Positions 24,632 through 28,909 of a DNA stretch of 30,146 bases are shown here, one piece after another. The translations under genes were made by a program, and so were the position numbers. Position 1 is the first letter of the stretch. The number at the start of each line of letters is the position of its first letter. This stretch comes from Patescibacteria group bacterium UBA3527 (GTDB lineage Bacteria; Patescibacteriota; Minisyncoccia; Phycocordibacterales; UBA918). The notes under the pieces were generated by a model. The model was not told the origin of the DNA and ran no database searches. It saw only the letters and a program-made list of their open reading frames with translations. The DNA lies in the NCBI GenBank assembly GCA_002377025.1, contig DFPA01000058.1, forward strand, positions 1-30,146, in the 5' to 3' direction.

Positions 24632-25114
24632 ATGGAAACATCTGCCATTATATCTCTTATCCAGGAGTCACTGTTTGTAATAATAGTTTTTTTTGGCTTT
24701 CTTGTTTACTCAATGCTTAGAGGTAGGCATTACTTGATCAACTTAATCATAGGTCTTTATTTTGCCCTACTTATATCGCTTGAGTTTCCATACTACGAGA
24801 CCATACTTGGGGCCGCCAATACAGACCAGAGCCGAGCGATCCTTATGATTCTAGTATTTGCCGCATTTACAATTGCATCCACAACTTTACTCGGACGATT
24901 TTTGCATCAAGGTGATTATGATCGGGGAGTAATCGGTATTCATAGAAAGATTATTTACTCTCTGGCGGCAACAGTACTAGTAATGACTTATAGTTTTCAC
25001 GCCTTGCCGGTAACAGAGTTGGTTGACCCGGGGCCGATTCAGGCTTTGTTTGCAAGCCAAAACAGTTTCTTCTTTTGGCTCTTTGTACCTATTTTAATAT
25101 TGTTCTTTTTGTAG
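24632..25114 (+). CDS. Four-TM membrane protein (loosely CvpA-like)
   Basis: 160 aa, mostly hydrophobic segments. No diagnostic motif. Confidence 0.65.
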   Translation: METSAIISLIQESLFVIIVFFGFLVYSMLRGRHYLINLIIGLYFALLISLEFPYYETILGAANTDQSRAILMILVFAAFTIASTTLLGRFLHQGDYDRGVIGIHRKIIYSLAATVLVMTYSFHALPVTELVDPGPIQALFASQNSFFFWLFVPILILFFL

Positions 25115-25116
25115 TT

Positions 25117-25497
25117 ATGACAAGAGATGACTACGACCAGAATGGAAGTTGGGGGATTCTAGCGAGTATTGACTTGCACTCATGTAATCCTGACTTTATT
25201 CGAGATGCAGAGAAAATTAAGGACTTCACGCGTCAATTTTGCGACTTAATTGACGTAACAAGATTTGGCGAGTGTCAGATCGTTCACTTCGCCGATCACG
25301 ACGAAGACGTCGCTGGCTTCTCTATGGTGCAACTTATTGAAACTTCACTGGTTTCTGGACATTTTGCAAATAAAACAAACAATGTTTACTTGGATGTCTT
25401 TTCTTGCAAGTATTACGACCCAGATGCAGCTCATGAGTTCGCCAAGAAGTTTTTTGAGGCAAGGGATTCAACAGTTTGTGTGCTGCTCAGAAAATAG
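25117..25497 (+). CDS. speD: Pyruvoyl-dependent S-adenosylmethionine decarboxylase family proenzyme (class 1B-like, ET/S variant)
   Basis: IDLHSC and GFSMVQLIETSLVSGHF...YLDVFSCK. Ser69, Ser77, His82 and Cys97 have the canonical spacing (-8, 0, +5, +20). The ATG at 25117 gives 126 aa. Confidence 0.85.
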   Translation: MTRDDYDQNGSWGILASIDLHSCNPDFIRDAEKIKDFTRQFCDLIDVTRFGECQIVHFADHDEDVAGFSMVQLIETSLVSGHFANKTNNVYLDVFSCKYYDPDAAHEFAKKFFEARDSTVCVLLRK

Positions 25498-25499
25498 TT

Positions 25500-26024
25500 A
25501 TGGAATTTGTTGAACAGTCGCACAAGGATCTTTACTTGAGAGTAACTGCAGACATTGATTCACTTTGGGAGTATAAGATGCTCTCTAAAGCCAGTCTGAA
25601 TTTCCAAGGGTTACAGATTGAGTTTGGAATTTTAGGAGAGAGCCACTATGTGCTGGTTGCCAACAAGAGCTCTCGCTTCGCTGAGGTTTTTGCGTGTGGC
25701 AAGAAAAAATATGACGATGGGATTGAATTTAGTGACTTGATTGGAAGCTCCTTTGAAAAACAATTCGGGGACATATCATATCAGTTTGAGATGGAAGTAG
25801 TGAATGAACTAGAATCTTCTAAGCTATCTAGACTAAGAGAAAAGCGCAATGATCCAGATGTTAAGTACCTCAAGCACGACTTTCCAGCAAAGGACAAAGA
25901 CTTGTCGCATCCAGTGACAGAAGTGTATTTGAATACAAAAGGTGTCATCATTGTTGAGTCAGTTCATACATATCCCAATGAGAATGTTTCTGTTTTTACT
26001 AAGTCAAATTTTTTCATTACATAG
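25500..26024 (+). CDS. Uncharacterised protein (DUF2617-like from recall) with AdoMetDC-like motifs
   Basis: ILGESHYVLV...AEVFACG and SVHTYPNE motifs. 174 aa, coupled to speD and speE. Confidence 0.6.
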   Translation: MEFVEQSHKDLYLRVTADIDSLWEYKMLSKASLNFQGLQIEFGILGESHYVLVANKSSRFAEVFACGKKKYDDGIEFSDLIGSSFEKQFGDISYQFEMEVVNELESSKLSRLREKRNDPDVKYLKHDFPAKDKDLSHPVTEVYLNTKGVIIVESVHTYPNENVSVFTKSNFFIT

Positions 26025-26025
26025 C

Positions 26026-26880
26026 ATGAATAATTCAACTAAGCTTCATACGTACGAAACTCTCTACAAGGATTGGGGTCAGTTTTTTAGAGACTATGAA
26101 GTGCTAGTCGAGTCCAAAACTGGTGAACAGGACTTACTTCTCATTGATACCGAGTCCTTTGGAAAAGTTTTAATACTAGATGGAGTTGTACAGTTAACAG
26201 AGAGGGATAATTTTGTTTACCATGAAATGCTCACTCACGTACCCTTGATTGCACACGGAAGTGCAAAAAATGTTCTCGTTATCGGCGGCGGTGATGGAGG
26301 CACTATTCATCATGTATTGATGCACAGAGGCATAGAGGTGACAATGGTTGAGATTGACGAACAAGTCACTGAGTTTTCGAAAGAGCATCTGGCATTTGTA
26401 AATCATGACTCCTTTAGCAACCCAAGATTGTCGTTGCATATAGGAGACGGAGCAAAATTTGTCAAAGAGACTGCAGAAAAGTTTGATGTAATTATTGTTG
26501 ACTCAACGGACCCAATAGGACCTGGTGAAGTGCTATTCACTCGGGAGTTTTATGCGGATTGTAAACGCTGTCTTGGGGAAAACGGGATTCTTGTGACTCA
26601 AAACGGAGTACCGTTTACTCAACCTGAAGAGCTAGAGGAGTCAGTGTCTTACTTCAAAGAGTTATTCAAGTGCGGCACATGCTATTGTGCCTCGGTGCCA
26701 ACTTACGTAGGCGGAGTGATGGCTTTTGGCTTTGCTACAGATAATGTAAATCTTGTTAGTCAGCCAAAAGAAGACCTGGGCAAGAAAATTATAGATGCGG
26801 GCATTTGTTCGAAATACTACAATTCTGACATTCACCAGGCCTCTTTTGCTCTCCCAAACTTTATTAAGGAAATTGTTTAA
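26026..26880 (+). CDS. speE: Polyamine aminopropyltransferase (spermidine synthase)
   Basis: LDGVVQLTERDNFVYHEML, VLVIGGGDGG, VTMVEID, and FDVIIVDSTDP. The ATG at 26026 gives 284 aa. Confidence 0.95.
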   Translation: MNNSTKLHTYETLYKDWGQFFRDYEVLVESKTGEQDLLLIDTESFGKVLILDGVVQLTERDNFVYHEMLTHVPLIAHGSAKNVLVIGGGDGGTIHHVLMHRGIEVTMVEIDEQVTEFSKEHLAFVNHDSFSNPRLSLHIGDGAKFVKETAEKFDVIIVDSTDPIGPGEVLFTREFYADCKRCLGENGILVTQNGVPFTQPEELEESVSYFKELFKCGTCYCASVPTYVGGVMAFGFATDNVNLVSQPKEDLGKKIIDAGICSKYYNSDIHQASFALPNFIKEIV

Positions 26881-26882
26881 GT

Positions 26883-27827
26883 ATGCTATTGCCTGAGTGG
26901 TCAGTTGTCGGACTAGTTGCAGTTTCGATAGGAGTTGCAGGTACTTTCTTTGACAAGTATCTTCTTGAGAAATACTTTAACTCGGAGGATGAAGCAGATG
27001 ACGGTGGCCCCGGTGCACTGATGATTTTTTCCTCATACTTTGCATCTATAGTGGCGCTAGCGATTTTTCTTTTCTACCACAGCCGTATAGAGTTTGCTCT
27101 TGGTACTGGCATGGCAGGCTTGTTTGCTGGCGCTTTATTTGCAATATGGGTGTTTCTGTACTTGGAGGCCATTAACAGAGTCGAGTTGTCACGAGTGGTG
27201 CCCTTACTACAGACTATTCCTGCCTTTAGTCTGTTAATAGCCTTCGTAACACTGGGAGAGATTCTCACGCTCGAACAGGTATTAGCTATGCTAGGCCTTA
27301 TACTGGGTGCGATAGTACTTTTGTACACTAAAGAGGAGAATTGTTTTAGGCTGGATGGTACCACTCTCTGCATTATGCTTGGAGTATCATTGCTCACTGC
27401 TCTTAGCGACACCATTTTCAAAGCGGTTGCGCTTACCTCTAACTATGCTAGTGCAGCATTTTGGTCCTGGTGTGGATTTGTCTTGTTTGGAATCTCACTT
27501 TACTTGTTCAGCTCTCATTATCGGTCCCAGTTTGAGCTACTTACCAGAGAAAGATTTGGTGAGAAGTTCACCCTAAACTCCCTGAACGAAATTTTTGACA
27601 ATCTGCATGAACTACTTTTCTTTCTAGCGATTACGCTTGGACCTATTGCACTAGTCCATTCTATTAATGCCTATGAACCTATACTGGTACTGGTTGTAGG
27701 ATTTCTTATGGCTGCTCTCGCACCAAGGTACTTCAAAGAAGACAACTCGGGGAGTGTTGTTATATACAAAATATTCGGTGTATTAGTTATTACCGTTGCC
27801 AGTGTCTATCTTTATAGCGTAACTTAA
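26883..27827 (+). CDS. EamA/DMT-family transporter
   Basis: About 10 hydrophobic segments in two repeats, with ELSRVVPLLQTIPAF...LGE and GPIALVHSINAYEP motifs. Confidence 0.8.
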   Translation: MLLPEWSVVGLVAVSIGVAGTFFDKYLLEKYFNSEDEADDGGPGALMIFSSYFASIVALAIFLFYHSRIEFALGTGMAGLFAGALFAIWVFLYLEAINRVELSRVVPLLQTIPAFSLLIAFVTLGEILTLEQVLAMLGLILGAIVLLYTKEENCFRLDGTTLCIMLGVSLLTALSDTIFKAVALTSNYASAAFWSWCGFVLFGISLYLFSSHYRSQFELLTRERFGEKFTLNSLNEIFDNLHELLFFLAITLGPIALVHSINAYEPILVLVVGFLMAALAPRYFKEDNSGSVVIYKIFGVLVITVASVYLYSVT

Positions 27828-27829
27828 GT

Positions 27830-28909
27830 CTAGAAATACGATTCTAATTTGCCGCGACGGCGCACATCTGTGGTGGCGCAATGAATTGATCCTCCGAACG
27901 GATAGAAGTTTCTAAATGGTACAGGGATAGGTTCGATGCCGTGTTTATACAACAATTCCATCAGTGGTGTTTCGTTCTCTTCTACAATGGCTCTCTTACT
28001 GTCTATGCTTAGGAAATTTATCGTCAACCAGTCGCTCGAGAAGTACAGCGCTGAGTCAAAAGGTTTCGTAGGTGCGGGAGCTTCGATAATTTCCCATGAG
28101 TCAAACATGTCAGGTAGATGATCCTTTCGAACCCATGATGGATTTATGAGAAGTTTCCCGGGTGCAATAGGAACTATAGAGGTGTCTATATGTAGAGGAT
28201 GCTCTTCATCGAAGGAAAGTTCATGAATAGTATACTCGCTACCTATATGCCTACGTACCCACTCGATTCCCATCTCGTTCGTCACCTCACTTTTCTGAAC
28301 AAAAATATCTGTGCCAAATCGGACAAAATCAGCGGCATCAAATGCAACCTCTTTCTCTGAAATAGCAAACTGCCTTATACCATCAGGCTCAGCATTTTCT
28401 GGATCAAAATCTTGATTATAGAATGCATCATTCATTGTAGACTTTGGGGCAGGAAGCCACCTCGCACCATCCTTGAAGTATTCTTCAATAAGATCTCTAA
28501 AAGCAAAAATTTCAAAGTAGCGGGTTCTCCATGCCATCGGCGCCTCCACAATAATGTCACCAACAATAAGTAGAACGTCGCGTGGCATAGCAGCATACAG
28601 ACCAGTACTACTCCACCAAGGAGTTTTGTAGGTGTCGGAAAAGTCTAGAGGAGCAGGTCTTTTTACCGTTATATCTAATTTCTCTAGAACAGTGACAAGA
28701 TTGTTAAGCTCTTCCTCTGCTGCATCTGTCATTTCTCTTGGAAAAGGCTTGCCGCCATACTCATCAAAGAACCACTTCGAGTGGGAAGGAGTGGCTGAAC
28801 CCAATGCTACATTCCACTCCGGCACCACTGCATTCTTTACGGTTCCTACAATAACTTCCTCCAAAGGGTCCCATTCGTTACATGACCACACTTTCTTACT
28901 TACATCCAT
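27830..28909 (-). CDS. L-arginine-dependent amidinotransferase (AGAT/StrB1 family)
   Basis: VWSCNEWDPLEEVIVG, MPRD, and catalytic triad motifs FDAAD, LHIDT and GGSIHCATTDVRRRG. Confidence 0.95.
   Translation of the reverse strand: MDVSKKVWSCNEWDPLEEVIVGTVKNAVVPEWNVALGSATPSHSKWFFDEYGGKPFPREMTDAAEEELNNLVTVLEKLDITVKRPAPLDFSDTYKTPWWSSTGLYAAMPRDVLLIVGDIIVEAPMAWRTRYFEIFAFRDLIEEYFKDGARWLPAPKSTMNDAFYNQDFDPENAEPDGIRQFAISEKEVAFDAADFVRFGTDIFVQKSEVTNEMGIEWVRRHIGSEYTIHELSFDEEHPLHIDTSIVPIAPGKLLINPSWVRKDHLPDMFDSWEIIEAPAPTKPFDSALYFSSDWLTINFLSIDSKRAIVEENETPLMELLYKHGIEPIPVPFRNFYPFGGSIHCATTDVRRRGKLESYF

Follow-up and report, generated by a model that had tools for sequence, protein, structure and literature searches.

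A DUF2617 protein encoded next to speE in a Patescibacteria contig as a candidate compact pyruvoyl enzyme of the S-adenosylmethionine decarboxylase fold

The window analysed here is a stretch of 30,146 nucleotides from Patescibacteria group bacterium UBA3527 (contig DFPA01000058.1 of assembly GCA_002377025.1). The assembly amounts to 0.55 Mb in 62 contigs and is 79% complete; sampled genomes of the phylum range from 0.5 to 1.6 Mb, and the genome looks like one of the candidate phyla radiation. The window carries a tightly packed unit of co-directional genes with intergenic gaps of 1–2 nt, and within it lies an open reading frame (ORF) encoding a 174-aa protein of the DUF2617 family (25500..26024, + strand). 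Upstream is a PF02675 homologue (25117..25497, +) and downstream a short speE gene (26026..26880, +), each 1–2 nt away, and DUF2617 fills the slot where speD, the gene for S-adenosylmethionine decarboxylase (AdoMetDC), would be expected. Pfam membership, alignment and a structural model make the DUF2617 protein a candidate compact single-chain pyruvoyl enzyme with the AdoMetDC fold.

The DUF2617 gene and its immediate neighbours

The DUF2617 ORF is intact, with an ATG at 25500 and a TAG at 26022–26024. An in-frame TTG at 25476 is an unlikely start because homologues align from the ATG at 25500. The protein scores 56.7 bits against PF10936 (DUF2617; cut-off 22.3 bits, E 4e-15) over residues 24–170, corresponding to profile positions 24–159 of 160, and a whole-genome scan with the same profile gave it 56.9 bits. 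This bears out an earlier, sequence-only reading of the locus, which had called the protein DUF2617-like. The motifs which that reading had picked out (Ser48, Cys66 and SVHTYPNE) are likewise present in the 174-aa ORF where it had placed them, and the histidine that it had missed five residues beyond the serine is indeed absent, position 53 being a valine.

Four short segments of the protein, all encoded on the + strand, are central to what follows. The first is E47-S48-H49 (25638..25646; S48 codon 25641–25643) within the motif LGE47-S48-H49, where conservation and a modelled turn suggest a self-cleavage site, E47|S48, with S48 as the putative pyruvoyl precursor. The second, E62-V-F-A-C66 (25683..25697; C66 codon 25695–25697), closes the modelled strand 59–66. 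The third runs from F128-P129 to T140 (25881..25919); by spacing and aligned ranges, F128 and T140 are the proposed counterparts of human AdoMetDC F223, which stacks on adenine, and S229. The fourth, H156-T-Y-P-N-E161 (25965..25982), lies at the end of the C-half strand 150–158, and the longer string S154-V-H156-T-Y-P-N-E161 is encoded at 25959–25982.

The gene immediately upstream is the sole PF02675 match in the window genome (E 1e-21) and falls below the TIGR03330 cut-off. A search with its protein returned 1,940 proteins at E≤1e-3; the 120 matches listed share at least 60% identity with it, come from bacteria of the candidate phyla radiation (CPR), Bacteroidota and DPANN archaea, and are labelled AdoMetDC by their database names. 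In 51 homologues Q72, S77, H82, Y91 and C97 never vary, while T76 and F83 occur in at least 90%. According to Fig. 8 of PMC10407285, Gln, Thr, Phe and Tyr around the processing site are diagnostic of SpeDC, described in the same paper as a pyruvoyl L-ornithine decarboxylase that lacks AdoMetDC activity and is clustered with speD and speE. The window's protein has all four (Q72, T76, F83, Y91) together with S77, H82 and C97, with the predicted processing site IET|S77 (between E75-T76 and S77). It is therefore predicted, from these signature residues, to be a class 1b AdoMetDC homologue of the SpeDC ornithine-decarboxylase type. The name SpeD given to it in the sequence-only reading holds for its PF02675 membership but not for its likely activity. 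Moreover, since the predicted SpeDC would already form the amine, the suggestion that DUF2617 supplies a missing amine loses its ground, and the activity missing from the operon is that of AdoMetDC, the source of decarboxylated S-adenosylmethionine (dcAdoMet) for SpeE.

The downstream gene, which starts 1 nt past the DUF2617 stop codon, encodes a canonical short SpeE (spermidine synthase/polyamine aminopropyltransferase), an enzyme that consumes dcAdoMet. It scores 345 bits against NF002010 (cut-off 260), 299 bits against TIGR00417 (cut-off 250) and E 3e-56 against PF01564. Spermidine synthase is described as the obligatory partner enzyme of AdoMetDC in PMC10407285.

Conserved residues and predicted fold

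An exhaustive HMMER search with the 25500–26024 protein returned 181 cluster representatives at E≤1e-3, of which 147, sharing no more than 50% identity with one another and 20–37% with the query, were aligned. The N-half residues S48 (144/147), H49 (146/147), E62 (147/147) and C66 (144/147) are almost invariant, as are F128 and T140 (146/147 each) and, towards the C-terminus, H156 (144/147), Y158 (147/147) and P159 (145/147); E161 is kept in 125 of the 147. The pattern G-x-S-H, E-x-x-x-C, F-P, T and H-x-Y-P recurs in all nine actinobacterial members, which were obtained by a separate search. Conservation of S48, C66 and the C-terminal histidine, on which the sequence-only reading had made its proposal depend, is thus high for each of the three. 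Conversely, the ‘ANK’ that it saw as common to this protein and the neighbouring SpeD homologue is coincidental, because positions 54–56 vary within the family. S48 is missing from only three of the 147, and it is in these three that C66 and H156 are missing too. These residues are therefore kept or lost together, as expected for a single active site.

A single-sequence AlphaFold model reached a predicted local distance difference test (pLDDT) score of only 52 and was replaced by one built from the 147-sequence alignment (pLDDT 93.2, predicted template-modelling score 0.89). In this model the order beta-alpha-beta-beta-beta-beta occurs twice, forming two halves of ~85 aa each. The first six elements of the class 1b AdoMetDC of Thermotoga maritima follow the same order. 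In the N-half, S48 opens the fourth strand (48–54) after a tight G46-E47 turn that follows strand 38–45, placing it as a processing-type serine at a beta-turn, and C66, 18 residues further on and four past E62, ends the fifth. In the C-half, T140 sits on the third strand (139–145) and H156-T-Y-P-N-E161 ends the fourth. Models of DUF2617 clusters in AFDB resemble the model with template-modelling (TM) scores of 0.54–0.77.

The model was then compared with 48,161 PDB chains in an exhaustive VIA-align scan. Its top match is the human AdoMetDC proenzyme 1msv_A (135 residues, model 2–171 against chain 4–260), at a Z of 8.8 that is only modestly above the 7–8 stated by the tool as the norm for models without a true match; 1jl0_A matches at the same Z, with 135–136 residues aligned for the two. 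Human AdoMetDC is both the best and the only full-length match in the PDB, and the runners-up are unrelated proteins with Z no higher than 6.5, confined to the C-half. Class 1 AdoMetDCs 1vr7 (T. maritima) and 2iii (Aquifex aeolicus) match the N-half (Z 5.2–5.6), the AdoMetDC-like N-domain of human spermine synthase (3c6k_A) matches the C-half (Z 5.5), and the Trypanosoma brucei AdoMetDC/prozyme entry 5tvf_E matches both halves (model 2–172, Z 5.4). A PF02675 cluster of the ESM Atlas also matches the C-half. By AlphaFold and structure search, then, the predicted fold appears to be AdoMetDC-like.

The closest architectural parallel is the human class 2 enzyme, which like DUF2617 as modelled is a single chain made from two AdoMetDC-like halves, with Ser and Cys in the N-half and Ser/Thr and His-x-x-Pro-(x)-Glu in the C-half; the sequence-only reading had already drawn the parallel with class 2 for Ser and Cys in the N-half and His in the C-half. 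The human motif H243-I-T-P-E247 is paralleled by H156-T-Y-P-N-E161 and S229 by T140, and the ends of the ranges aligned to 1msv and 1jl0 put H156 within ~2 residues of H243, as read from those range ends and not from a residue-level superposition. The two differ in length (~330 aa against 174 aa with one short helix per half), in the processing site (S-S with a Ser-to-Cys spacing of 14, against S-H and 18) and in distribution, DUF2617 occurring in bacteria and archaea, unlike the eukaryotic class 2. DUF2617 has no match to PF01536, the class 2 profile; this profile matched nowhere, control genomes included, making the search uninformative. Class 2 is held to be made up of two class 1b units fused together, a cleavage site being absent from its C-terminal domain, and shows almost no sequence similarity to class 1 despite the common fold (PMC10407285).

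Class 1b SpeD (T. maritima TM0655, 1vr7; PF02675), which matches the N-half of DUF2617 in structure (Z 5.4–5.6), shares with DUF2617 a motif grammar: x-S-H at a beta-turn, [DE]-[VI]-F-[ATS]-C 18–20 residues on, and H-T-[WY]-P-(N)-E. E62-V-F-A-C66 parallels the class 1 D-[VI]-F-[ST]-C, and, as the alignment to 1vr7_B ends at model residue 69 and chain residue 86, C66 corresponds to T. maritima C83 if the alignment is ungapped there. Similarly, H156-T-Y-P-N-E161 parallels H-T-W-P-E (T. maritima H68), and T140 may be compared with S55. However, class 1b enzymes are homodimers of ~120–130-aa chains that each carry all motifs, whereas DUF2617 splits them over two non-identical halves and has no profile-level homology to class 1b. 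Prokaryotic two-module fusions of the AdoMetDC fold (PMC10407285) resemble DUF2617 in being single chains with one functional processing site, but at ~270–290 aa they are readily recognised by PF02675, whereas DUF2617 is far smaller and unrecognisable by sequence. The trypanosomatid prozyme is an AdoMetDC-fold paralogue with a weak structural likeness to DUF2617 (the 5tvf_E match); it is catalytically dead and needs an active AdoMetDC, whereas DUF2617 keeps the catalytic-type residues and usually has no PF02675 partner.

Several of these results weigh against an AdoMetDC assignment. Foldseek gave 1msv and 1jl0 a probability of 0.84–0.87, but with TM scores of only 0.40–0.46 and E-values all above 0.008, and Mog1p/PsbP/START-like folds match the C-half at Z 6–7. 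The halves are ~85 aa long, compared with ~120 aa in class 1b, and lack the second helix. Residue equivalences, and the spatial clustering of S48, C66 and H156, are read from aligned ranges and topology only. No match of the DUF2617 protein to PF02675 or PF01536 was found at E≤1, hhalign gave the DUF2617 profile a probability of 0.3% against a SpeD-like profile (0.1–0.7% for the halves), and it detected no repeat between the N-half and the C-half. With the SpeD-like profile hhalign pairs no segment other than E62–C66, and the pairing is not significant. Searches with DUF2617 gave no match among PDB sequence profiles, no AdoMetDC-family match in NCBIfam and no usable match in the ESM Atlas feature search. 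Moreover, the residue preceding S48 is Ala or Glu about equally often, and E161 is not retained in some mycobacterial-type members.

The likeness to AdoMetDC might therefore be convergent or superficial, with DUF2617 performing a different chemistry as a Cys/His or Ser/His hydrolase, an amidase or a transferase; on this account its substrate would be a polyamine or the unknown product of a membrane aminopropyltransferase operon. The lack of a sequence-profile link to AdoMetDC, a Z only moderately above background, the other alpha+beta folds that match half of the model, and the unknown roles of its usual partners DUF4247, DUF350 and DUF4178 all speak for this explanation. However, it leaves unexplained why the strands and turns that carry the processing and catalytic residues in AdoMetDC are those that carry the conserved residues here, and it accounts for neither of two genomic patterns described below, the alternation of DUF2617 and SpeD beside orthologous SpeE genes and the want of a dcAdoMet source for the GGGDG-bearing SpeE in those 46 of the 56 DUF2617 genomes that lack PF02675. 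We regard a different chemistry, and such a substrate with it, as unlikely, though by no means negligible.

Linkage to SpeE and the distribution of PF02675

The contigs of the closest homologues are syntenic with the window, carrying dnaK, dnaJ, a membrane protein, DUF2617, SpeE (with or without EamA), an amidinotransferase and HisKA, and no PF02675 gene was found in their clusters. Within the window's phylum DUF2617 occurs in 5 of 401 genomes; the four besides that of the window, one of them 98% complete, have no PF02675 match, and each has a SpeE-like gene within ~3 kb. Elsewhere it was found in 9/251 genomes of the phylum of G441, which was reached through a Microthrixaceae contig, and in 2/201 Chloroflexota. 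As the family is so sparse in phylum-wide scans, no large balanced contingency table could be drawn up.

A degenerate DNA pattern for the H-x-Y-P-N-E region yielded a further sample of 40 genomes, which is biased towards an intact H156 motif. At least 39 DUF2617 loci found in this way were confirmed by a hidden Markov model search (E≤1e-10), originating from Chloroflexota, Acidobacteriota, Desulfobacterota, Campylobacterota, Poribacteria, Gemmatimonadota, Patescibacteria and others. Among the 14 loci with 4.5 kb or more of sequence downstream, 12 had a SpeE-like gene on the same strand. All nine actinobacterial carriers have a long SpeE-like gene 1–2.5 kb from DUF2617, and eight of the nine are without PF02675. 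The motifs GGGDG and D-x-P-D-P distinguish aminopropyltransferases that use dcAdoMet from methyltransferases; the former is kept in all 28 linked SpeE-like ORFs and the latter in 25.

Overall, PF02675 is absent from 46 of the 56 DUF2617 genomes, including 32 of the 40 found by pattern, several of which are complete chromosomes. The eight matches in the latter set comprise three of SpeDC type, one arginine-decarboxylase-like, one unclear and three of bona fide SpeD type, and at least four of the ten matches in all DUF2617 genomes are of SpeDC type. The control genomes of Corynebacterium glutamicum and Haloferax volcanii likewise contain DUF2617 and SpeE-like genes and no PF02675 match.

A baseline came from the 201 sampled Chloroflexota genomes, in which a strong SpeE was defined by E≤1e-30. 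Of the 56 genomes that passed this threshold, 54 have PF02675; the other two are G777, in which DUF2617 lies 1.4 kb from SpeE, and a genome with only a partial SpeE match. The G777 operon reads DUF4178-DUF2617-DUF350-SpeE, and its membrane-fused SpeE shares 54% identity across the whole length with its counterpart in G716, where the next gene, which overlaps that for SpeE, is a PF02675 SpeD. Thus, orthologous aminopropyltransferases can pair with either SpeD or DUF2617, and the genomic role of class 1b SpeD resembles that of DUF2617 in that both stand beside speE and are interchangeable next to orthologous membrane-fused SpeE genes.

This pattern has its contrary cases. Three genomes (G403, G419 and G429) carry both DUF2617 and a bona fide-type SpeD, and dozens of Chloroflexota genomes have long (510–890 aa) weak SpeE-like genes with neither PF02675 nor DUF2617. 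Furthermore, the genome counts can be taken only as descriptive, since related genomes do not count as independent, and MetK (PF02773) was not found in the 79% complete window genome.

The fold and residue evidence would serve equally well for a pyruvoyl decarboxylase of an amino acid (Arg, Orn or Lys) that supplies the amine acceptor, and enzymes of the AdoMetDC fold have repeatedly turned into decarboxylases of arginine or ornithine (PMC10407285). Such an enzyme would, however, be redundant beside the ornithine-decarboxylase-type SpeDC, while dcAdoMet would be left without a source. DUF2617 is also anti-correlated with PF02675 among SpeE carriers, the pattern to be expected if it replaced AdoMetDC, since amines can be had by scavenging or from pyridoxal-phosphate enzymes. 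Moreover, by comparison with the human enzyme, the aromatic pair Y/F3 and F128 together with E161 appear suited to binding adenosine. An amino-acid substrate is therefore improbable. The compact single-chain pyruvoyl decarboxylase of the sequence-only reading accordingly finds support in the AdoMetDC-like predicted fold and near-invariant residues, while the Arg or Orn substrate that it had suggested is disfavoured.

The three sequences without S48, C66 and H156 bear on a further possibility. Two of these, P0080 and P0131, are 38% identical to each other, and each lies directly upstream of an intact class 1b PF02675 homologue (AESHISFHTFPE...DVYTC). The P0080 pair occupies L103:2394-4535 (a contig of GCA_040384005.1), and a like arrangement is present in L105. 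L103 is syntenic with the window (its membrane protein and HisKA are 47% and 37% identical to those of the window) and has a deoxyhypusine-synthase-family gene downstream of the class 1b homologue; no SpeE was found on the stretch of L103 that was read. From these contexts it follows that the residues decayed where a PF02675 enzyme is adjacent and the consumer of dcAdoMet is missing from the cluster. Decay beside a class 1b homologue fits a functional overlap of DUF2617 with SpeD, and this dead clade is possibly a pseudoenzyme or part of a prozyme-like pair, distinct from the protein of the window.

Persistence of the dead clade indicates that a non-catalytic form can be retained, and DUF2617 in general could be a non-catalytic partner with the AdoMetDC fold, which either serves SpeE as scaffold or activator or activates a SpeD homologue in the manner of a prozyme. 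The tight linkage to SpeE, the match of the C-half to the spermine synthase N-domain (3c6k_A, Z 5.5) and that to the T. brucei AdoMetDC/prozyme pair (Z 5.4) would agree with this. On the other hand, 144 of the 147 sequences retain the catalytic-type set almost unchanged and its loss occurs only en bloc, which marks an active site and not a scaffold; in most DUF2617 genomes there is no PF02675 protein that it could activate; and a non-catalytic partner again leaves dcAdoMet without a source. We consider such a role very improbable. For the window's protein, the prozyme-like partnership with SpeD entertained in the sequence-only reading is disfavoured because its catalytic-type residues are intact and conserved in the family, the sole PF02675 gene of its genome is of SpeDC type, and 46/56 DUF2617 genomes are without PF02675.

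Proposed function and genomic context

In our judgement the chances are even that DUF2617 processes itself into a pyruvoyl AdoMetDC, compact and pseudo-dimeric in architecture, which supplies dcAdoMet to SpeE. The tools used show the gene, how well its residues are conserved, the likeness of the fold, the linkage and the phyletic pattern; self-cleavage, the pyruvoyl cofactor and the substrate are what we infer. In the proposed scheme two beta-alpha-beta-beta-beta-beta half-domains of ~85 aa would form a pseudo-dimer as in eukaryotic class 2. The proenzyme would cleave itself at E47|S48 into chains of ~5.5 kDa (beta) and ~14.6 kDa (alpha), and S48, the first residue of the alpha chain, would become the pyruvoyl group, with H156 and T140 from the C-half assisting the processing. 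C66 would act as the proton donor, and Y/F3, F128 and E161 would bind adenosine. The mature enzyme would decarboxylate S-adenosylmethionine (SAM) to dcAdoMet, to be used by the SpeE whose gene begins 1 nt downstream. In the window, arginine might be converted to ornithine by an amidinotransferase and ornithine to putrescine by SpeDC, from which SpeE, with dcAdoMet from DUF2617, would produce spermidine or a related polyamine.

The broader proposal, that DUF2617 constitutes a third structural class of AdoMetDC, a self-processing single-chain pseudo-dimer of ~175 aa and a hitherto unrecognised source of dcAdoMet, we hold at slightly less than an even chance. Operons of AdoMetDC, DUF4178, DUF350 and membrane-fused SpeE, and a variant with DUF4247 and DUF2617, have already been described (PMC11237479; Li et al. 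2019, cited there), and the Mycobacterium tuberculosis protein used as an example in PMC11237479 belongs to DUF2617. The DUF2617–SpeE operon type and its link to polyamine genes are therefore already known, and this type, with DUF4178 and DUF350, is home to most DUF2617 genes. The window differs in having a short cytoplasmic SpeE, SpeDC, an EamA transporter and an amidinotransferase, and a scan of its flanking genes turned up no DUF350, DUF4178 or DUF4247. Among the papers listed as mentioning DUF2617 we found no link to AdoMetDC fold or activity, searches on Rv2597 and Rv2601, and on Haloferax together with AdoMetDC, gave nothing relevant, and neither Pfam (2025 copy) nor NCBIfam names DUF2617 as an AdoMetDC. 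What is added here is that the neighbour is of SpeDC type, that the operon setting is new and simpler, its SpeE being canonical and cytoplasmic, that three residues are lost together and that a dead clade lies beside a class 1b homologue, along with the baseline from Chloroflexota and the displacement in situ.

Many genomes encode an enzyme of SpeE type whose dcAdoMet-type motifs are intact, yet have no AdoMetDC that can be recognised, and DUF2617 is the best candidate for the aminopropyl-donor enzyme that is apparently missing from many bacteria with SpeE. If the proposal is true, it would provide a source of dcAdoMet for Actinobacteria, haloarchaea, Chloroflexota, Patescibacteria and others that have SpeE without SpeD, assign a whole family of unknown function, and change polyamine pathway predictions for many bacterial and some archaeal lineages. 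Operons of membrane aminopropyltransferases would gain their missing first step. Moreover, DUF2617 would represent a second, independent AdoMetDC pseudo-dimer with one active site, a prokaryotic parallel to a two-half architecture thought to be a eukaryotic invention, and would thus bear on models for the origin of the eukaryotic enzyme.

Three other genes complete the neighbourhood. The unit opens with a 160-aa multi-pass membrane protein without a Pfam family (24632..25114, +), which ends 2 nt before the next ATG and may fill the role that DUF350 proteins have in the usual operon. It is 37% identical to the 161-aa gene product preceding DUF2617 in L008 and 47% identical to its counterpart in L103, and such a gene precedes DUF2617 in all syntenic CPR contigs (37–47% identity). 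The last gene of the unit encodes an EamA/DMT-family transporter (26883..27827, +; PF00892, E 8e-8), which in L013 lies between DUF2617 and SpeE. The SAM importers of Rickettsia and Chlamydia are DMT-family proteins, and the transporter could be a SAM importer or a polyamine exporter. Convergent with the unit is a homologue of L-arginine:glycine amidinotransferase (AGAT; 27830..28909, −; E 4e-103 to human AGAT, 1jdx), which also matches HsvA and SxtG, has no Pfam match at E≤1, and has counterparts in L008 and L013, which are syntenic with the window. Its role could be to free L-ornithine from L-arginine for use by SpeDC, or else to amidinate the polyamine that is formed.

Two observations from other genomes concern the same gene families. 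In the Poribacteria chromosomes L041, L059 and L066, DUF2617 overlaps the start of a 516-aa SpeE-like gene by a few bases, the tightest coupling of DUF2617 and SpeE seen outside the window. Lastly, the Peribacteria metagenome-assembled genome G419 (L078/L087), which also has DUF2617, encodes a 292-aa SpeD–SpeDC fusion (ORF 1039-1914, −) beside a short SpeE. The fusion joins a bona fide-type SpeD module (SESHFTIHTRPE) to a SpeDC module (QLIETS), both processing sites being present, and is readable only with TGA recoded, five TGA codons lying in frame.

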